Below, piece after piece: positions 45,824-54,601 of a DNA stretch of 64,000 bases. Position 1 is the first letter of the stretch. Every line of letters starts with the position of its first letter. Origin of the DNA: Candidatus Krumholzibacteriia bacterium (GTDB lineage Bacteria > Krumholzibacteriota > Krumholzibacteriia > JAJRXK01); NCBI GenBank assembly GCA_041484665.1, contig JBGPIA010000001.1:672001-736000 (forward strand), given 5' to 3'. Both the position numbers and the translations under genes were made by a program. The notes below the pieces were generated by a model. That model was not told the origin of the DNA. It was given only the letters and a program-made list of their open reading frames with translations, and made no database searches.

Positions 45824-47263
45824 ATGGACTCGACCCCGCTGCGCACGTTCCTTGAGATCCCCTACGAGAAACTCGAGGAGATGAACCTCGAGGTGAAGGA
45901 GGCCCGGCTCAACCGGGTGTCGCCCGACCGGCTGCGCGAGCAGCGCATGGCCTACCTTGCCGACGAGAAGCGCATCAAGGCGGTGACCGTCTGCTTCACC
46001 GACCTCGAGGGCCGCTTCCACATGCTCGACTACGACAAGAAGTTCCTGCTGAAGTCGGCCGACAACCTGACCTTCGACGGCTCCTCGATCAGGGGGTTCT
46101 CCCAGCAGGCCGAGTCGGACCTGCGCCTGGCGATCGACTGGCCGGCATTCTACTGGCTGCCGGCCGACGTGTTCGGCCCGGGCAAGGTCTTGGCGTTCGG
46201 TGAGGTGCGCGAACGTGATGGGTCACCCTATGCCGCCGACCTGCGCGGCAGGCTCAAGCAGTACGCCGAGACGCTGATCAAGAAGGACGGCACGGTCTGC
46301 TACGCGGCCAACGAGATCGAGGGGTTCCTCTTCAAGGGGCGCGACGCCGAGCGCCGCTATCACGACACCGGCACGTTCGAGTTCATCTCCACCGGTGGGT
46401 ACTATCACTCGCTGCCGGGCGATGCGCTCCGCCTCTTCATCGATGCCGCCGCCGAGGTCCAGCGCGCCATGGGCTTCGCCAACGAGAAGGACCATCCGGA
46501 GGTGGCCCCCTCGCAGTTCGAGATGAACTACGGCTACACCGAGGCTCTCATCGCCGCCGATCAGGTCCAGCTCTACAAGCTGCTGTGCCGGCAGGTGGCG
46601 GCGAAGTTCGACATGACCGCCTGCTTCCTGCCCAAGCCCATGACCGGGGTCAACGGCAACGGCATGCACACCAACATGTCGCTGGCGCATGGCGGCAAGA
46701 ACCTCTTCTACGACAAGAACGGCGAGGACGGGCTGTCGCACCTGGGCTGGGACTTCCTCGAGCGCATCTTGAACAACGCGACGGACACCTGCCTCATCCT
46801 CAACTCCAGCGTGAACGCCTACCGCCGCCTGGATCCTCACTTCGAGGCGCCCAACCAGATCAAGGCCAGCGCGATCAATCGCGGCGCGATGATCCGCATC
46901 CCGTTGGGCAACGAGCGCTCCGCCCGCATCGAGGTGCGCTCGGTGGCGCCCGACGCCAATCCCTACCTGGCGATCTACACGCTGCTGCGCACCGGGATCG
47001 AGGGGCCGCAGTCGACCGAGGACAACGACACCAAGCGCAGCCGCACGCGCTTCCTGCCCGACAACATCCAGGACGCGATCCGCATGTTCAAGGCCAGCCA
47101 CTTCGCCGCCACGCTGCTGGGCGAGGAGGTCCACGGCAAGTTCGGCGAGGTCAAGATGGCGTCGGCGGAGCGCTGCCCGAAGGCTCTGGGCGCACTGGTG
47201 AAGGCCGCGGAGATCCAGTTCCACCACGAGGTCACCAACCAGTACCTCTGGAACCAGTTCTAG
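45824..47263 (+). CDS. glnA: Glutamine synthetase (type I-like)
   Basis: FDGSSI.GF, ESDL, HPEVAPSQFE, PKP..GVNGNGMH.N.SL, NAYRRL and RIEVRS..PDANPYL. GGAGG RBS. Confidence 0.92.
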   Translation: MDSTPLRTFLEIPYEKLEEMNLEVKEARLNRVSPDRLREQRMAYLADEKRIKAVTVCFTDLEGRFHMLDYDKKFLLKSADNLTFDGSSIRGFSQQAESDLRLAIDWPAFYWLPADVFGPGKVLAFGEVRERDGSPYAADLRGRLKQYAETLIKKDGTVCYAANEIEGFLFKGRDAERRYHDTGTFEFISTGGYYHSLPGDALRLFIDAAAEVQRAMGFANEKDHPEVAPSQFEMNYGYTEALIAADQVQLYKLLCRQVAAKFDMTACFLPKPMTGVNGNGMHTNMSLAHGGKNLFYDKNGEDGLSHLGWDFLERILNNATDTCLILNSSVNAYRRLDPHFEAPNQIKASAINRGAMIRIPLGNERSARIEVRSVAPDANPYLAIYTLLRTGIEGPQSTEDNDTKRSRTRFLPDNIQDAIRMFKASHFAATLLGEEVHGKFGEVKMASAERCPKALGALVKAAEIQFHHEVTNQYLWNQF

Positions 47264-47312
47264 ACGCCCTCTGAATGCGCGGCGCGCCCGGTACGGGTCC
47301 GGGCGCCGCCGC

Positions 47313-48092
47313 TCAGTCGTGCGGCCGGCTCGACGTCGCGTCCGGGGGAGCGCGCTCGGGCTGCAGCTCCCCCGGCCGGAAGCTTGGAGTGCGGGCAAAG
47401 GCCGAGCGCTCGCCCAGCCCCACGATGCCCTTGAGGACGCCCACCGCCTGCCGCGGGACGCCGGAGAAGAGCCCGCCCCCGTCCCGAGCGCGGATGCCGC
47501 CGCGCAGCCACTGCTCCAGATCGCGGACCGCGCCGATCTCCAGCGGCTCGAGCCGAGCCTCCACCATCACGTAGTAGCGGCCCGATGGATCGAGGGCGGA
47601 GCGCTCGGCCACCTTCGCTCCGTGCTCGCTGCAGACGGCCTGCTCGAGCGCCCCGATGCTGCGTACGACCGTCATGCGCGCGTGCACGGAGTCGAAGACG
47701 CCGTAGCTCTCGTCGACCACATCGAACAGGATCTTGTAGGCGGACCCGCCGCCGCCGATCTCGGTGTCCCACCACGAAGCACGGTCGCGCCACAGCTCCC
47801 ACCGTATGACCAGACTCGCGGGGAGCCCCGAGCGTAAGGCTTCGACGACGCTCGCATCGAAGAGACCGTCGACCTGGAAGTCGACCGCTACGTGCGCGCC
47901 AGCGATGTAGGGCGAGGCGAGATCGATGGCGGCGGCCGGCGCGCCCGCGGCGGCTGCAGGCCGCAGCAAACAGAACGCGACCAGCTCAAGCATGCTACGG
48001 GCAACGCCACGGCGCCGATCAAGGGCCGACGCCGGGCGGGCGGACAGCCGGCGCATCGGACGCAGGGCGTGGCCCTCGGCCGCAGCGCGCAT
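47313..48092 (-). CDS. DUF4390-like exported protein
   Basis: 'EALRSGLP..L...ELWRDR..WWD....YKI.FD', 'YYVMVEARL'. TGATG overlap with the upstream gene; alternative start 47993. Confidence 0.7.
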   Translation of the reverse strand: MRAAAEGHALRPMRRLSARPASALDRRRGVARSMLELVAFCLLRPAAAAGAPAAAIDLASPYIAGAHVAVDFQVDGLFDASVVEALRSGLPASLVIRWELWRDRASWWDTEIGGGGSAYKILFDVVDESYGVFDSVHARMTVVRSIGALEQAVCSEHGAKVAERSALDPSGRYYVMVEARLEPLEIGAVRDLEQWLRGGIRARDGGGLFSGVPRQAVGVLKGIVGLGERSAFARTPSFRPGELQPERAPPDATSSRPHD

Positions 48093-49651
48093 CAGAACGC
48101 GCGATTGAGACGTAGCTGCACGAGCACGTCGCGCTCCCCCCGGTCCAGCCGCTTGAGCACCTCCACGCGCAGATCGTCGTCGCCCAGCTGCAGCCCCATC
48201 CCGATGCTGCTCTTCCACTGACCGGGATCGATCCGCGCCGCCCGGTCCGCCCAGGCCATCCCCGTGTCGAACAGTAGCACCGCCTGCACGTCCTCGATCA
48301 CCGGAAACACGTACTCGGCGTTCGCGAGGAAGACTCGCTCCCCACCCAGCGGCGGGGCTGTGCCCGGCGCGGGCGCAGCGGCTGGATCGGGCACGAGCAG
48401 CGTCTGGTAGGGATACCCGCGCACGGTTCCCAGCCCCCCTACGACGTAGCGCTTCTGCTGCGGCAGGACCCCGTGGAGGTTCGTGCCCGACCGCACGCGC
48501 AGATCCAGGATCTGGTCGCGGCCCATGCGCAGGCGGGTGCGCAGCTGACCGGTCAGCTGGCGGAACTCGAAGTCGCCGCCGAACAGGTCCCGCCCGCTGT
48601 GCTCGTAGCTGAGCTGGGCGGAACGGAGCCGGCTCCCCAGACGCGCCTGCACGAACAGGCTGCGCATGCTGCCGGCGTCGATGGGCGGATTCGGGATGAA
48701 CTCGCCGCGCCCGAACGACCAGTCGGCGGTGTTGGGGAGCGACGTGTAATCGACGGCGCGGAACTCGCCGCGCACCTGCAGCGCCTCCGACGGCTCCAGT
48801 ACGACCCCTATGCTGCCGCCCTCGCTGCGATAATAGTCGCGAAAGTCCTCCTTGAAGAAAATCGCTGCCGCGCTGTTCTCGCCGCTGCCGATGCCAGTCT
48901 GGTCGGTGTAGTCGGTGTGCGCGAAGCCCGAAGCCTCCACGCAGAGCGAGCGGCTGCGGGTGACCGGCTGGCTGACCGTGACGAGCGTGCTCCAGCGTTT
49001 GCTGCGGAATCCGTAACCGATGTTTCCAGAGAGCGCCGGCTGGAACGGCTCGGGCGTGCGCATCCGGCCGCGCAGCGACAGCACCAGGCCGTCGGCGCGC
49101 TGATAGGCTACGAGGTCGTCGTCGAGATCGCACTCAACATCGAAGCGATAACGGCGCTCGGGCGACAGCACCTCGCCATCCCGTCCGATGGATACGACGG
49201 ACACCCACCCGTGCCCGCGGTGGCGCGCCACCTGCGGGTTCCCAGCGTCCAGATGATGCGACCAGCCAGTCGAGTCCTCCACGACGAATTCGTAGACGTG
49301 ACGGCCGGGGGTCAGATCCACGCGCACCTCCCAGAGGCTGTCGGCAACGTCGTGCTCCATCGGGAGCTCCTCCCACTGGAGGAAGTCGCCGGTCAAGGAG
49401 ACGCTCAGGTAGCCCTCGTCCTCGTAGCGGAAGCGGATCTGCCCGTCGTCGCTGCAGGGCGCCAGTCGATCGACGCGGCCATAGCTGCGCCAGTGCGCCG
49501 GCACGCGATCCGCGTGGTCGAGCTGGGAGTCGCTCATCGACTCTGCCGGCGGCGCGGGCATGGCGCAGCGGCACGGAAAGGTCAGCAGTGCGATCGCCAC
49601 GAGCGCCAGCGCCAGCGCAACGAAGAGCATGTTGACCGAGCGCTCCATCAT
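48092..49651 (-). CDS. Omp85/BamA-TamA-like outer membrane protein with N-terminal glycogen-binding (CBM48/E-set-like) domain
   Basis: 'VSLTGDF..W..LPM...WEV...LTPG.H.YEFVV', then a barrel with 'GGLGTVRGY', 'NAEY', 'FDTG.AW' and terminal Phe. Confidence 0.75.
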   Translation of the reverse strand: MMERSVNMLFVALALALVAIALLTFPCRCAMPAPPAESMSDSQLDHADRVPAHWRSYGRVDRLAPCSDDGQIRFRYEDEGYLSVSLTGDFLQWEELPMEHDVADSLWEVRVDLTPGRHVYEFVVEDSTGWSHHLDAGNPQVARHRGHGWVSVVSIGRDGEVLSPERRYRFDVECDLDDDLVAYQRADGLVLSLRGRMRTPEPFQPALSGNIGYGFRSKRWSTLVTVSQPVTRSRSLCVEASGFAHTDYTDQTGIGSGENSAAAIFFKEDFRDYYRSEGGSIGVVLEPSEALQVRGEFRAVDYTSLPNTADWSFGRGEFIPNPPIDAGSMRSLFVQARLGSRLRSAQLSYEHSGRDLFGGDFEFRQLTGQLRTRLRMGRDQILDLRVRSGTNLHGVLPQQKRYVVGGLGTVRGYPYQTLLVPDPAAAPAPGTAPPLGGERVFLANAEYVFPVIEDVQAVLLFDTGMAWADRAARIDPGQWKSSIGMGLQLGDDDLRVEVLKRLDRGERDVLVQLRLNRAF

Positions 49652-49726
49652 CTACCGCCTCGTGCTGCACGGGCTGCCCCGCGCACGAACTGCATCATGG
49701 GGGGTGCTTGCGATCCAGAGCGAACG

Positions 49727-49741
49727 GCAACGCACGTGCCA
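49727..49741 (-). promoter_or_regulatory. Sigma54 -24/-12 promoter
   Basis: Minus strand reads TGGCACGTGCGTTGC (GG-N10-GC), about 75 bp upstream of the Omp85-like gene. Confidence 0.8.
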
Positions 49742-49959
49742 CGGCCCCGGCGCGGCTCTGGTCGCACAGTGGAAACTGGGATCCCCTTGGAGCGTCGCGG
49801 GTTCGGGCCGGCGAGCCAGCGTTTCCGACGCCGTCTGCCCGGTCCGCACCCGGGATCGCCGTGTGCCGGTGACAGCAGGAGCGTGTCCTCGCGACACGGC
49901 GGCGCGACACCGCGGCGCGACCGCGCGCCCGCGCGAAGCGGTCGCGGCGCAACCGCGCA

Positions 49960-51330
49960 CTAACGGCGGATTCCCAGCCGCTGCAGCTTGCGGTGGAGAT
50001 TTCCCCGGTCGAGTCCCAACCTTCGCGCGGCCTCGGCGATGTTGCCGCCGGAGGCCTGCAAGGCCTGCTGGATGCGCTCGCGCTCGAAGCGAAGGAGGCC
50101 AGCCGCAAGATCTTCGTCCTGTGGCACGGGCTCCTCCGCACGCGCCGGGTGCGCAGGCCCACCGACGAGCTCGCGCATCGCCTCCGCCTCCACCGTCGTT
50201 GCGGGGATCATGATCACCACGCGCTCCATCAGGTTCTTCAGCTCACGCACGTTGCCTGGCCAGTCATGGGCGCGCAGCAGCGCGATGGCGCCTTGCGTGA
50301 GGCGTTTGGCGGGCCGGCCATTCGCGCGGCAGAAGTGCGCCAGGTAGAACCCCGCCAGTTCATCTGTATCCTCGATATGCTCGCGCAGTGGCGGCACGTG
50401 GATCGGAACGACCTTGATCCGGTGGTAGAGATCTTCGCGGAAACGCCCGTCGGCCAGCAGCCGCTGCAGATCCTGGTTTGTGCTGGCAAGCACGCGCACG
50501 TCGAGCTGCACCGTCCGGCTTCCGCCCAGCCGCTCCATGCAGCGCTCCTCGAGCACGCGCAGGAGCTTGGCCTGGGTGGCGGCGTTCATGTCGCCGATTT
50601 CGTCGAGCAGGAGCGCCCCGCCCTGCGCCAACTCGAACTTGCCGCGCCGCAGCGCCACGGCACCGGTGAACGCGCCCTTCTCGTGGCCGAACAGCTCGCT
50701 CTCCAGCAGCTCGAGCGGGATGGCGGCGCAATTCACTTTGAGCAGGGGGCCTTCCCGGCGCCGCGAGCCCGCGTGCAGCGCGCGGGCCACCAGCTCCTTG
50801 CCCGTGCCGCTCTCGCCGCTGATCAGCACGCGCGCCTCGCTGGGCGCGGCGCGGGCGATCTCCTCGCGCAGCCGTGCCATGGCAGCGCTACGCCCCAGGA
50901 TCTCCCCGCCTTCCCCGGCCATCTGCTGCAGCGCGGCGTTCTGGGCGCTGAGGCGCTCCATGTGCAAGCAGTTGCGGATGGAGAGCAGCAGCCGTTCCAC
51001 GGCGATCGGCTTCTCGACAAAGTCGTACGCCCCCAGCCGCGTCGCCTCCACGGCCAGCGCGATCGTGCCGTGTCCGCTCATCACGATCACCGGCGGCAGC
51101 AGCGCGCGTTCGCCAGGATCGCGCAGCACCGTGAGCCCATCCTCGCCGGGCAGGCAGACATCCATCAGGACGAGATCGAACGCCGCGCGGGCCAGCAGTT
51201 CGCGTGCGCTGCTTAGATCGCCCGCGCTGGACACGTCGAATCCCTCGTCGGCCAACAATCCGCCGAGCATCCGGCGGATGTTGGGCTCGTCGTCCACCAC
51301 CAGGACCCGCCGGCGTATGACATCGCTCAC
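49960..51330 (-). CDS. Sigma54-dependent response regulator (NtrX/NtrC family)
   Basis: REC domain (VVDDE, MDV, SGHG, EKP), GESGTGKE, GAFTGA, WPGNVREL and a Fis-type HTH. Confidence 0.95.
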   Translation of the reverse strand: MSDVIRRRVLVVDDEPNIRRMLGGLLADEGFDVSSAGDLSSARELLARAAFDLVLMDVCLPGEDGLTVLRDPGERALLPPVIVMSGHGTIALAVEATRLGAYDFVEKPIAVERLLLSIRNCLHMERLSAQNAALQQMAGEGGEILGRSAAMARLREEIARAAPSEARVLISGESGTGKELVARALHAGSRRREGPLLKVNCAAIPLELLESELFGHEKGAFTGAVALRRGKFELAQGGALLLDEIGDMNAATQAKLLRVLEERCMERLGGSRTVQLDVRVLASTNQDLQRLLADGRFREDLYHRIKVVPIHVPPLREHIEDTDELAGFYLAHFCRANGRPAKRLTQGAIALLRAHDWPGNVRELKNLMERVVIMIPATTVEAEAMRELVGGPAHPARAEEPVPQDEDLAAGLLRFERERIQQALQASGGNIAEAARRLGLDRGNLHRKLQRLGIRR

Positions 51331-52862
51331 GGGGCAGCCTCCTGGCCGTGCGGCGCGCCGCGGCGATCGTCGGGTGGACCGGGCGCCGCGGCAGTGTCGA
51401 CCGGCAGCTCCACCCGCAGCTCGGCCCCCCGCGGGGTAAGCGCGTGGGCGGACACGCGCCCGCCATGGTCGGCCACGATCTTCTGGACGATGGCCAACCC
51501 CAGCCCCGTCCCGCCGGGCTTGGTGGTGAAGCCCGCCTCGAAGATGCGCCCGGCGTCCTGCGGGAGACCGGCGCCGCCGTCCTGCACGCTGACGCGCAGC
51601 CGGCCATCCTCCCGCTCGGCGCGCAGCACGAGCTCACCGCGTCCGTCCATGGCCTCCACAGCGTTCTTGACCAGATTGGCGAAGACCTGGCGCAGCAGGC
51701 CGGCATCCCCCTGGACGGGCGGGGCGCCCTCCCATCCGATCCAGCGGACCTGCAGCGCGTCGCGGTCGGCGTAGAGCTCCACCACGGCGCGCAGGATCGC
51801 CTCGAGATCGACCGGCGCGCGCTGTGGCTCGGGCAGGCGCGCGAATTCGGAGAACTCGTCGGCCAGCCGCCTCAGGTTTCCGGTTTCCTCCAGCAGCGTG
51901 TCCAGGCACTCCAGCACCGTGGCGTCGCTCGTGCGCTGGCGGATTCGGTGCGCAGCCAGGCCGATGGGCGTCAGCGGATTCTTGATCTCGTGCGCGAGCC
52001 GGCGCGCCACCCCTTGCCACGCGGCGATCCGGGCCGTGCGCACCACCGTCTGCTTGCTCTCCTGCAGCTCGGCTGTCATGCGATTGAACGCCTCCACGAG
52101 GTCGCCGACCTCGTCGACGGCGCGTACGCGCACGCGGTGGTCGAGGTTGCCAGCCGCCACGACCTCCATGCCCGCCGCGAGCGCGCTGATCGGCCCGGCG
52201 ATCCGCCGCGTCAGCAGCCGCGACAGCAACAGCGACACCGTCAGCAGCACCGCGCCCGTGCCCAGCAGGGTGAGCACGACGTCACCGCGCAGCAGCTTGC
52301 CGTAGAACAGCCGCAGCTGGCGGGCGCTGCGGCTGCCTCCGGCGATGGCGTCGAGGTCCGCCGCCAGCGCCGGGTCCAGGGGGCGCTCCACCACCAGCGC
52401 GCGCCTCTGGCCCGCGACCTCCACCGGGACAACCGCGCATAGATACGTGCGTCCGCCGTGCTCGCTACGCTCGCCACTGGACCGGTCCGTGGTTTCCGGC
52501 TGCTCCAGACGCGCGAGGATCCCGCCCTCCAAAGGCGGCAGACCCGAGGTCACCGCTGCTTGGGCCGCCAGGCTCTCGGCCAACGCCTGTGTGCGGAGCC
52601 GTTGCGCGTCGAGCACCCGACGCGCCAGATCGAGCGAGCTCTCCATAGAGGCGCGAAAGCCCGCGCTGTCCAGCACCTCGAGCTGGCGGCCGCTCATGCG
52701 CCAGTCGAGCCAGAGCACCAGGACCGTTGGAATGGATGCCAACGAGAGGAACGTCCAGAACAGCCGCCGCTGCAGTCGCGAGGCTCCCCGCAGCGTCCCG
52801 ATGGCGGACGCGGCGCCAACGGCCAGGGCCACAGCGAGGGCGGCTGCGATCCAGAGGGGCAT
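51327..52862 (-). CDS. HAMP sensor histidine kinase (NtrY-like)
   Basis: TM segments, HAMP, 'AWQGVARRLAHEIKNPLTPI', 'NLVKNA', 'DGGAG' and 'GTGLGL'. Confidence 0.93.
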   Translation of the reverse strand: MPLWIAAALAVALAVGAASAIGTLRGASRLQRRLFWTFLSLASIPTVLVLWLDWRMSGRQLEVLDSAGFRASMESSLDLARRVLDAQRLRTQALAESLAAQAAVTSGLPPLEGGILARLEQPETTDRSSGERSEHGGRTYLCAVVPVEVAGQRRALVVERPLDPALAADLDAIAGGSRSARQLRLFYGKLLRGDVVLTLLGTGAVLLTVSLLLSRLLTRRIAGPISALAAGMEVVAAGNLDHRVRVRAVDEVGDLVEAFNRMTAELQESKQTVVRTARIAAWQGVARRLAHEIKNPLTPIGLAAHRIRQRTSDATVLECLDTLLEETGNLRRLADEFSEFARLPEPQRAPVDLEAILRAVVELYADRDALQVRWIGWEGAPPVQGDAGLLRQVFANLVKNAVEAMDGRGELVLRAEREDGRLRVSVQDGGAGLPQDAGRIFEAGFTTKPGGTGLGLAIVQKIVADHGGRVSAHALTPRGAELRVELPVDTAAAPGPPDDRRGAPHGQEAAP

Positions 52863-53104
52863 GGGGTCGCGCGCGGAATGCCCTCGACGGTGGGGCTCCG
52901 CGCTGCTGGGCCCGGCAACCGTCCCGGCACAGGCCGGTCCTGGAGGTGTGCGCGCCTCCTGCGCGGAGTATAGCCCAGCGCGGCGCGACTGCAGCAGCGC
53001 GAACCCGTACCGAAGCGGGCGCGGGCAGGCGTCCGGGCGCGGCGGCGCGTGCGTGCGGCGGCACGGCTGCGCTACACTGATCTCCCCGGGTCCGGGAGCT
53101 GTCC

Positions 53105-54601
53105 ATGCGCCACCCCCACGCCTCGCTCGAGCAGCTGCCGCCTTCCGCCACGCTGCGACCTGCAGACGCCGGGGCCGGCCTGGAGCTCGCGCCGGAGGCG
53201 ATGCGGCGCCTCGGCTATCGCGCGGTGGACGCGGTGATCGACCACATCGCGAACCTGCGCGAGCGCCCCGCCGTGCGCGGGGCGACGCGCGCGCAGATGG
53301 AGGCGCTGTTACGCGAGGAGCTGCCGCGCACGGGCGGCGATCCCGAGCGGCTGCTGCAGCAGCTCCTGGAGGACGTGACGGCGTTCGGCGTCCGCACCGA
53401 GCATCCCGCCTTCTTCGGCTACATCCCGCTCTCGCCGACCTTCCCCGGCATCGTGGGCGATCTGTTGGCCACCGGCACCTCGCTGTTCGCTGGATCGTGG
53501 CTGGGCTCGCCCGGCGCTGCCACCCTGGAGGTGGTCGTGACCGATTGGTTCGCGCGCCTGGTGGGCATGCCCGAAAGCGCGGCCGGTCTGCTCACCTCGG
53601 GCGGCTCGATGGCGAACCTCATCGGCCTGGCGTGCGCGCGCCGCGCCAAGCTGGGCGAGCAGCTCGCCGGTGCGCGCGTCTACACCAGCGACCAAGCGCA
53701 CGCCGCCGTGGCGCGCGCGGTGGTGCTGCTGGGCCTGGCGGCGGAAAGCGTCGTCGTACTGGCATCCAACGACCGCTTCGAGCTCGACGTCCCGGCGCTC
53801 GAGGAGGCGATCGCGCGCGACCGCCGCGCCGGCCTGCGCCCCTTCTGCGTCGCGGCCACGGCGGGAACGACGAACACCGGGGCGATCGACGCGCTGGTCC
53901 CGCTCGCGGATCTGTGCGCAGCCCACGAGCTGTGGCTGCACGTCGACGGGGCGTACGGCGGCTTCGCCGTTCTCACCGGCCGGGGCAGGCGCCTGCTCGC
54001 GGGGATCGAGCGCGCCGACAGCGTAGTGCTCGACCCGCACAAGTGGCTCCATCAGCCGCTGGAATGCGGCTGCGTCCTGCTGCGCGATGAGGCGGAGCTG
54101 CTGCGCACATTTGCGTCCAACGCGGACTACCTGCAGGACATCCCTCGACTCAACCGCGAGATCAACTTCTTCGAGCGCGGCATCGAGCTGTCGCGCAGCG
54201 CGCGAGCCGTGAAGATCTGGCTGAGCCTGAAGACGTTCGGAGCGGACCGCTTCGGCCAGGCGGTCGATCAGGCGCTGGACCTGGCCCTGTACGCCGCGGC
54301 GCGCGTGGACGAGGCCGCGGATCTGCAGCGCATGGCGCCCGTGCCGCTGTCCACGGTGGCGATGCGCTGTGTGCCGCCCGGCTGGGCCGACGACGATCCG
54401 CACCTGGACACGCTGCAGTTGTCCATCGTGGACGCGCTGATCCGGCGGCAGGCGCCGGTGTTCCTTACCTCAACGCGCCTACGGGGCCGCGTCGCCCTGC
54501 GCCTCTGCGTGCTCTCGCACCGCACGACGGCCGCCGACGTGGACCTGGCCCTCTCGACGGTGCAGCAGCTCGGCCGCGAGCTGGCGCAGATCCGGCTCTA
54601 G
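53105..54601 (+). CDS. Group II PLP-dependent amino acid decarboxylase
   Basis: HP.FFGYI, TSGGSMAN, AGTTNTGAID, WLHVDGAYG and DPHKW. Confidence 0.92.
   Translation: MRHPHASLEQLPPSATLRPADAGAGLELAPEAMRRLGYRAVDAVIDHIANLRERPAVRGATRAQMEALLREELPRTGGDPERLLQQLLEDVTAFGVRTEHPAFFGYIPLSPTFPGIVGDLLATGTSLFAGSWLGSPGAATLEVVVTDWFARLVGMPESAAGLLTSGGSMANLIGLACARRAKLGEQLAGARVYTSDQAHAAVARAVVLLGLAAESVVVLASNDRFELDVPALEEAIARDRRAGLRPFCVAATAGTTNTGAIDALVPLADLCAAHELWLHVDGAYGGFAVLTGRGRRLLAGIERADSVVLDPHKWLHQPLECGCVLLRDEAELLRTFASNADYLQDIPRLNREINFFERGIELSRSARAVKIWLSLKTFGADRFGQAVDQALDLALYAAARVDEAADLQRMAPVPLSTVAMRCVPPGWADDDPHLDTLQLSIVDALIRRQAPVFLTSTRLRGRVALRLCVLSHRTTAADVDLALSTVQQLGRELAQIRL

Follow-up and report, generated by a model that had tools for sequence, protein, structure and literature searches.

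An Omp85 barrel with a CBM48-like domain sits in a conserved sigma54-type cassette with DUF4390 and NtrYX-like genes and may be part of an envelope-sensing loop

In this study, we analysed a four-gene cassette that lies between positions 52862 and 47313, on the minus strand, of a 64-kb stretch of contig JBGPIA010000001.1 from a Candidatus Krumholzibacteriia bacterium; this whole stretch is called the window below. The cassette encodes an NtrY-like sensor kinase, an NtrX-like sigma54 activator, an Omp85-superfamily protein and a DUF4390 protein. We suggest, at a rough probability of 45 %, that the Omp85 barrel is the outer-membrane end of a relay and neither an insertase nor a channel for sugars, because different barrels recur just before DUF4390 and features of insertases are missing. 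Sequence comparison establishes the gene set, its order, the coupled junctions, the promoter, a phased enhancer and a tight linkage of Omp85, DUF4390 and kinase genes in several phylum-level groups, and the conserved core is, on these sequences, Omp85, DUF4390 and the NtrYX-like pair. To this core the present locus adds, as read from its sequence, a CBM48-type Omp85 architecture, whose binding face is remodelled, and an enhancer whose sequence is precisely defined. DUF4390 is the domain of PlrP, which has been described as a third component of NtrYX-family systems (available text of PMC13001219), and for this reason a place in a signalling loop suits the operon better than the role of an effector.

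Layout of the locus

The genes follow each other in the order kinase-regulator-Omp85-DUF4390, all on the minus strand, with one gap of 308 bp.

51327..52862, minus strand: NtrY-like sensor kinase, 511 aa, with three transmembrane helices, a periplasmic region of about 135 aa, HAMP, HisKA (HEIKN) and HATPase domains
49960..51330, minus strand: NtrX-like sigma54 activator, with a receiver domain, an AAA+ domain with GAFTGA (ESELFGHEKGAFTGA) and a Fis helix-turn-helix ending in DRGNLHRK
48092..49651, minus strand: Omp85-superfamily protein, 519 aa, with a signal peptide, a low-confidence linker (residues 25-63), a CBM48-like domain and a 16-strand barrel
47313..48092, minus strand: DUF4390 (PlrP-like) protein, 259 aa, DUF4390 match E 1e-14

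A sequence-only reading of this DNA had named an NtrY-like kinase, an NtrX-like activator with an intact GAFTGA motif and a coupled DUF4390-like gene, and all three were recovered by the profile searches, though the kinase lacks one expected part: HAMP, HisKA and HATPase were found, and a domain profile search detected no PAS domain. The kinase matched no NtrY-specific model, and when it is set against the layout of PlrS (periplasmic domain, HAMP, PAS, HEIKN-type HisKA and HATPase, as given in the part of its description available to us), PAS is the sole missing element of an NtrYX-type kinase. The regulator scored 423 against a cut-off of 600 with the NtrX family model NF051870, and its closest solved structure is 5m7n, which we take to be Brucella NtrX and whose aligned stretch holds no GAFTGA. 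Judged by these scores, the kinase-regulator pair is NtrYX-like, below the family cut-offs.

The kinase stop and the activator start overlap in GTGA, and the Omp85 stop and the DUF4390 start overlap in TGATG, which couples the two genes. In this genome the signal peptide of the DUF4390 protein is weak, with no 19-residue window above 1.6 in a hydropathy scan, the one method applied here; DUF4390 homologs show hydrophobic N-termini. The genome encodes RpoN, at least 26 sigma54 activators and 12 Omp85 matches (11 besides the window protein), including one BamA-sized candidate. With its gene set, its own promoter, its own activator and RpoN in the genome, the locus fits the self-contained unit that had been proposed. 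It is flanked by genes for a glutamine synthetase (45824-47263, plus strand, convergent) and a pyridoxal phosphate-dependent decarboxylase (53105-54601, plus strand, divergent), neither of which is kept beside the cassette in relatives.

Conservation of the gene linkage

The synteny survey proposed alongside the sequence-only reading bears out the association. DUF4390 directly follows the barrel gene bearing the carbohydrate-binding module (CBM) in 25 of 26 relatives, and NtrX directly precedes it in 22 of the 26, the others being one case 4 kb away, two cuts at contig ends and one absence. When loci were selected by DUF4390 instead, an Omp85 gene was found directly upstream in 51 of 53 (13/14 and 38/39). 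Twelve of the 14 loci, which were drawn from the other matches of the search that found the second DUF4390 of this genome, have the order 1-POTRA Omp85-DUF4390-NtrY-NtrX, one has a PDZ-bearing Omp85 and one has no barrel. The 39 loci come from two further phylum-level groups, in which DUF4390 occurs in 74/81 and 13/15 genomes; they were taken from 101 matches, mainly the stronger ones and those on longer contigs, together with second copies, and their sole miss is a contig edge. Cassettes of the window type that lack the CBM number 22. At the present locus DUF4390 lies within 5 kb of the NtrY-like kinase gene, as is the case for PlrP genes.

One of the 1-POTRA arrangements lies in the same genome (L071, G000:C2 at about 318.1-323.7 kb) and comprises a 1-POTRA Omp85, DUF4390, an NtrY-like kinase and an NtrX-like activator whose motif reads GAYTGA. 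Next come two more genes, one long and lipoprotein-like, the other small and barrel-like; the first four genes of this arrangement recur in 24 examined loci. At L075 (5432-10145) a PDZ-bearing Omp85 and DUF4390 are followed by a HAMP protein with a motif that we presume to be PP2C-like, and this locus thus pairs barrel and DUF4390 with a different inner-membrane output. Among 62 loci the recurring neighbours are a bactofilin-like membrane protein (30), RlmN (21), an extracytoplasmic function-type sigma factor (13) and a zf-HC2 protein (8); these recurring clusters exclude the window's own flanks.

Such linkage could also mean that the four genes have simply been inherited side by side and share their regulation, with no link in mechanism. 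An Omp85 barrel and DUF4390 each occur apart elsewhere, and in a midpoint-rooted FastTree phylogeny of the barrels (127 sequences after removal of 15 duplicate loci and of short or weak matches) the cassette barrels form one clade with local support of 0.95, L203 excepted, so that much of the linkage may be a single inherited event. However, a second barrel type shows the linkage too, with its genes ordered differently, as does the L203 barrel outside the clade, and the linkage is accompanied by translational coupling and a dedicated enhancer. We regard this explanation as very improbable.

Promoter and enhancer

49727..49741, minus strand: sigma54 -24/-12 promoter element TGGCACGTGCGTTGC, the sole exact match in the 64-kb window
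49884..49896, no strand assigned: candidate enhancer site 1, a TGTC-N5-GACA palindrome 155 nt upstream of the -24 box
49862..49874, no strand assigned: candidate enhancer site 2, 133 nt ahead of the -24 box; its distance to site 1 is 22 bp, or two turns of the helix

The consensus sigma54 promoter that had been read from the letters is present as TGGCACGTGCGTTGC and is conserved in relatives. By itself a lone exact match is modest evidence (0.09 are expected in the window, and at least one was reached by 9 of 100 shuffles), and its conservation strengthens the case: with at most one mismatch the element is found in the intergenic regions of 5 of 26 relatives (0.11 expected), and with at most two in 18 of 26, while the antisense strand is never better than three. 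One relative, L033, had no upstream DNA for this count. From the -24/-12 geometry the +1 position is predicted, by convention, at about 49715, and neither a sigma70 promoter nor an intrinsic terminator was found within 47100-53200.

The two palindromic sites (49896-49884 and 49874-49862) had not been recorded in the sequence-only reading. In its strict form, TGT[CG]-N5-[CG]ACA, the motif occurs in all 25 loci counted, against a shuffle mean of 0.375; L052, whose promoter is doubtful, was left out. Only a spacer of 5 gives this result, other spacers being found in 0-2 loci. The sites stand in tandem, 18-22 bp apart, in 18 of the 25 loci, and in the whole 5.45-Mb genome the tandem occurs once, at this locus. 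Enhancer-to-promoter distances are phased at 10.5 bp (R 0.78, a value drawn from kin that are not independent). Because the motif had been derived from the same loci in which it was then counted, we examined 12 held-out CBM loci, of which 12 have the sigma54 site and 11 the paired enhancer. A GAFTGA motif and a DR(A/G/T)xLHRK helix are common to the activators of the window-type cassette, and in the 1-POTRA cassettes of the window's phylum a sigma54-like site precedes the Omp85 gene in 7 of 11.

Taken by its sequence features, namely RpoN, a -24/-12 site, an activator with GAFTGA and an enhancer about 80-160 bp upstream, the operon is predicted to be sigma54-dependent. It is likely that the adjacent NtrX-like activator binds the enhancer, and this activator probably drives the operon.

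A wider regulon of this enhancer is unsupported: the genome holds three other pairs of a single site and a promoter, two of them beside other activators. These are sigma54 sites at G000 C1:447671, C1:319285 and C2:589474 (all minus strand), each with a single relaxed palindrome 92-128 nt upstream. At L203 (3268-3380), four copies of the palindrome with 33-bp spacing stand before a bactofilin-type barrel outside the cassette clade.

The Omp85 barrel

48095..49120, minus strand: 16-strand Omp85 barrel (residues 178-519), with loop-6 VRGY at 410-413, LFDTG at 460 and a C-terminal Phe

The Omp85 profile PF01103 matched the window protein at 48.4 bits (cut-off 24), and matches to DUF5686 and Omp85 cover the two halves of the barrel. 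An AlphaFold2 model of the 519-aa protein, built with 24 sequences (pLDDT 80.7), starts with a signal helix and a linker of low confidence, followed by an all-beta domain (residues 66-155) and 16 strands (residues 181-515). VRGY lies in a long loop between strands 11 and 12, and among the Foldseek matches listed, the top ones are TamA and BamA structures (E 2e-11). The Omp85-like gene with VRGY and a terminal Phe, and the E-set domain joined to a barrel that a structure prediction was expected to reveal, are thus both borne out, and the barrel and CBM48-like folds are supported by predicted models. The beta-13 motif is LFDTG in the window protein and FFDTG in many homologs; a (V/L/M)RG(Y/W) motif in loop 6 together with FxDxG in beta-13 has been given as the motif definition of Omp85 (PMC11358297). 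Matches in the ESM Atlas were all below 0.9 and serve as leads; the clusters that come nearest consist of Omp85 proteins, for the most part from Gemmatimonadota. In one subgroup (P0013-P0025, alignment columns of about 625-660) an insertion rich in Asp and Trp lies in a predicted periplasmic turn between strands 12 and 13, and similar stretches are also seen in N-terminal linkers.

As an insertase the barrel is atypical. A profile search of the Omp85 protein gave no POTRA match at E<=0.1, and the scores with the BamA and TamA equivalog models lie far below their cut-offs (TIGR03303 33.3 against 297 bits; NF047950 28 against 625). A glycine in strand 16, the site of the G807-type kink, has a role in the BamA and TamA insertases. 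At the corresponding position (-4) it is present in 0 of 34 barrels of this type and in 23 of 24 1-POTRA barrels and the BamA candidate. Orthology with BamA was rejected on these grounds, that is, scores below the family cut-offs, no strand-16 glycine and a separate BamA-sized candidate in the genome.

An alternative is that the barrel is nothing more than an output under regulation: the NtrYX-like pair would induce it under envelope stress as an accessory factor for outer-membrane assembly or repair, and DUF4390 would have no contact with it and sit in the operon for feedback. The Omp85 fold, loop-6 VRGY and the beta-13 (F/L)FDTG are retained, assembly was the conservative hypothesis of Heinz and Lithgow for Omp85 proteins without POTRA (available text of PMC4104836), and NtrYX controls envelope genes in Rhodobacter (available text of PMC7240162). 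It would have to accommodate the missing POTRA domain, the scores far below the BamA and TamA cut-offs and the strand-16 glycine at 0/34, and it leaves unexplained that two Omp85 types, and a third, PDZ-bearing type beside a HAMP protein, stand directly 5' of DUF4390. We consider it unlikely.

The topology of BamA puts the N-terminus of its barrel on the periplasmic side, and a comparison of the model's strand topology with that of BamA predicts a periplasmic CBM48-like domain. This predicted orientation bears on the idea of self-display, in which the barrel, in the manner of type Vd systems, would export its own N-terminal module (CBM48, bactofilin-like or laminin-G) to the surface as an adhesin. 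The N-domains do vary as passengers would, lectin-type folds included, and PlpD has been proposed to work in this way (available text of PMC4104836). However, with BamA as reference the N-terminus would be periplasmic, POTRA is absent, the linker is short and many members of the barrel family have no N-domain at all, and we hold self-display to be highly improbable.

Distribution and exchange of the N-terminal domain

A protein search gave 31 matches, of which 24 are full-length (the query and 23 homologs with 39-51 % identity); named homologs belong to Candidatus Eisenbacteria or Latescibacterota, and genome records to Krumholzibacteriota and Eisenbacteria. In the window's phylum the full CBM-barrel was found in 27 of 201 sampled genomes and in 4 of 9 families. 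The best 150 representatives of the barrel family, obtained with a query that included three bactofilin-type rows, comprise 21 CBM-barrels, 2 bactofilin-CBM-barrels, 67 bactofilin-barrels, 30 with a short or cut N-terminus, 29 with other N-termini (among them laminin-G in 4, DUF4252 in 4, POTRA in 2 and toast-rack in 1) and 1 non-barrel. Given this variety the N-domain is, on sequence, a swappable module; the barrel tree does not order gain and loss of the CBM (support 0.56 or none). The same cassette is seen at seven loci (L149, L164, L185-L188 and L190) with barrels that carry two bactofilin-like repeats and between one and three CBM48 domains; the enhancer there is a single site at -115 to -118.

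The CBM48-type domain and the question of glucan binding

49187..49456, minus strand: AMPK-beta/CBM48-type beta-sandwich (residues 66-155); W93 corresponds to AMPK W100, W130 lies near W133, E stands at K126 and V at N150, and W149 is specific to the family

That the N-terminal domain is CBM48/E-set-like and not POTRA was a further claim of the sequence-only reading, and it stands. AMPK1_CBM (PF16561) matched residues 73-135 at 28.6 bits (cut-off 26.8), PF02922 stayed below its cut-off (17.2 against 22.4), and the domain modelled alone (pLDDT 94) found its best matches in AMPK and SNF1 glycogen-binding domains (Foldseek TM of about 0.73; E 8e-12). POTRA identity was rejected on the missing POTRA match, the all-beta fold and these best matches.

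The same reading had made glucan binding the output of the circuit, which the data do not establish. The sugar contacts of AMPK are W100, K126, W133 and N150 (available text of PMC4032982). In the 24 domains of the main clade W100 is kept in all, a W133-like Trp stands in the column in 19 (in the window protein it is shifted by one and follows a short insertion) and a new Trp149 is invariant, while K126 is kept in one (Arg in 10) and N150 in none. Other CBM-bearing barrels have K126 in 7 of 8 and N150 in 1 of 8, and all four contacts are found in 8 of the other 9 CBM48s that the genome encodes. The plant domain AKINbeta2, in which only the two Trp are kept, still bound starch (available text of PMC4032982), and glucan binding is for this reason weakened and not excluded. 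No glucanase, binding protein or transporter gene for alpha-glucans was found among the recurring neighbours at the 62 loci.

A barrel that takes up or captures alpha-glucans, with periplasmic maltodextrin held by the CBM48 and glucans acting as the signal for the two-component pair, is thus an improbable reading. It can point to the fold matches with glycogen-binding domains, to the two conserved tryptophans shared with AKINbeta2 and to the genome itself, which encodes secreted enzymes with CBM48 domains and, in a starch locus, a fusion of CBM48 to a barrel. Against it stand the loss of K126 and N150, which contrasts with the other CBM48s of the genome, the recurring neighbours, among which no alpha-glucan genes were found, the 22 sister cassettes without the domain and the separate alpha-glucan locus that the genome already has. 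The domain would be a periplasmic addition specific to this lineage, with a remodelled tryptophan surface for binding a glycan or a partner protein.

The alpha-glucan locus (L165, G000:C14 79-99 kb) encodes a secreted alpha-amylase with three CBM48 domains, a 2011-aa glucodextranase-C/FlgD protein, a protein with two CBM48 domains, a binding protein, a permease and a 761-aa CBM48 protein with a terminal Phe, the remainder of which has no Pfam match. Elsewhere in the genome (G000:C2:4151-5425, plus strand) an ATPase, presumably ParA/MinD-like by its N-terminal motif, ends in a CBM48 in which none of the four sugar contacts is lost. Separately, the 1812-aa protein P0049 has 17-18 tandem CBM48-like repeats.

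A proposed envelope-sensing loop

We propose that phosphate probably passes from the NtrY-like kinase to the neighbouring NtrX-like activator, that the activator would bind the conserved tandem enhancer and turn on the sigma54 promoter of omp85-DUF4390, and that the barrel and the PlrP-like protein would probably both feed back on the kinase, closing an envelope-sensing loop. The DUF4390 protein would act through the periplasmic region of the kinase, as is thought for PlrP in Bordetella, and the barrel would hold or release it according to the state of the outer membrane. Genetic evidence indicates that PlrP limits the phosphatase activity of PlrS through its periplasmic domain (available text of PMC13001219), and by analogy it is fairly likely that DUF4390 tunes the kinase here in the same manner and so provides feedback; NtrYX has been tied to envelope genes in Rhodobacter (available text of PMC7240162). 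A bolder version is tentative and, taken as a whole, rather unlikely: an Omp85 barrel repurposed as an outer-membrane receptor would make up, with a PlrP-like shuttle and an NtrY-like kinase, a four-part trans-envelope signalling system in several phyla of the FCB group, in which what is sensed would depend on exchangeable periplasmic modules, at this locus the remodelled CBM48.

Several observations weigh against the barrel as the outer-membrane end of such a relay. The linkage, as a sequence pattern, speaks for co-regulation and not for a relay, which we infer. VRGY is kept in 23 of 34 members, which fits a retained Omp85-type activity, and the missing strand-16 glycine is not decisive because a BamA G807V mutant has been reported as a darobactin-resistant strain (available text of PMC10476194). 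At most FCB-group loci that carry this barrel family, DUF4390 and NtrX are both missing from the neighbourhood, so that the barrel has functions outside the cassette, and in Bordetella-type systems the PlrP genes sit behind rsmB, with Omp85 unmentioned in the available text of PMC13001219. With regard to regulation, the 22 CBM-less cassettes have a promoter-like site in 9 cases and a paired enhancer in 1, another of the at least 26 sigma54 activators of the genome could serve the enhancer, and the relative L050 keeps the enhancer with no NtrX in the stretch examined. The enhancer pattern was, moreover, first spotted by eye in loci that were then counted, and these loci are kin and not independent.

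In line with the earlier impression that the architecture was not a characterised one, literature searches, which did not cover subscription journals and supplements, gave no description of the CBM48-Omp85 architecture or of the cassette. The cassette possibly points to an undescribed way of monitoring the cell envelope. With respect to the signal of NtrYX-type systems and the job of DUF4390, the adjacency of Omp85 and DUF4390 suggests the state of the outer membrane as a testable input. The architecture lies outside the classification in the available text of PMC4104836, in a family whose non-BamA members mostly await a function, and with enhancer and promoter defined to the base, the circuit can be rebuilt as a reporter.

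Comparison with known systems

Two-component systems that transcribe a periplasmic modulator of their own sensor are known from ZraSR-ZraP, which is sigma54-dependent, and from CpxAR-CpxP, and in RcsF-BamA-IgaA an outer-membrane barrel sequesters a signalling protein, RcsF. The likeness of the proposed loop to these systems is one of logic alone, and no relation in sequence is claimed. With the BamA and TamA insertases the window barrel shares the fold, as these give its top structural matches, whereas it has no POTRA domain, 12-15 % identity, scores below the family cut-offs and no strand-16 glycine. The AMPK-beta glycogen-binding domain has the same beta-sandwich with W100 and a W133-like Trp; in the window family, in contrast, K126 and N150 are replaced, Trp149 is invariant and the domain is predicted to be periplasmic and fused to a barrel.

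The window barrel resembles the POTRA-less Omp85 subfamilies (WD40, Metallo and noNterm; available text of PMC4104836) and the noNterm paralogs of Leptospira (available text of PMC11358297) in its 16 strands, its loop-6 RGY, a beta-13 motif like FxDxG and its occurrence besides BamA. Neither a CBM48-like N-domain nor any other carbohydrate-binding architecture is among those in the available part of the ten-subfamily PMC4104836 classification, and the word 'carbohydrate' is absent from the main texts of PMC4104836 and PMC11358297, the supplements being outside this scope.

A close counterpart is PlrP-PlrS-PlrR of Bordetella (available text of PMC13001219). There rsmB-plrP lies 5' of the kinase gene, whereas here DUF4390 lies 3' of the pair under its own sigma54 promoter and an Omp85 gene takes the place of rsmB; the window kinase lacks PAS, and the window regulator keeps an AAA+ domain with GAFTGA, unlike the beta-proteobacterial NtrX, which has no AAA+ domain. 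In both systems a DUF4390 gene stands no more than 5 kb from a HAMP kinase with HEIKN and its regulator, and its product is a predicted periplasmic modulator.

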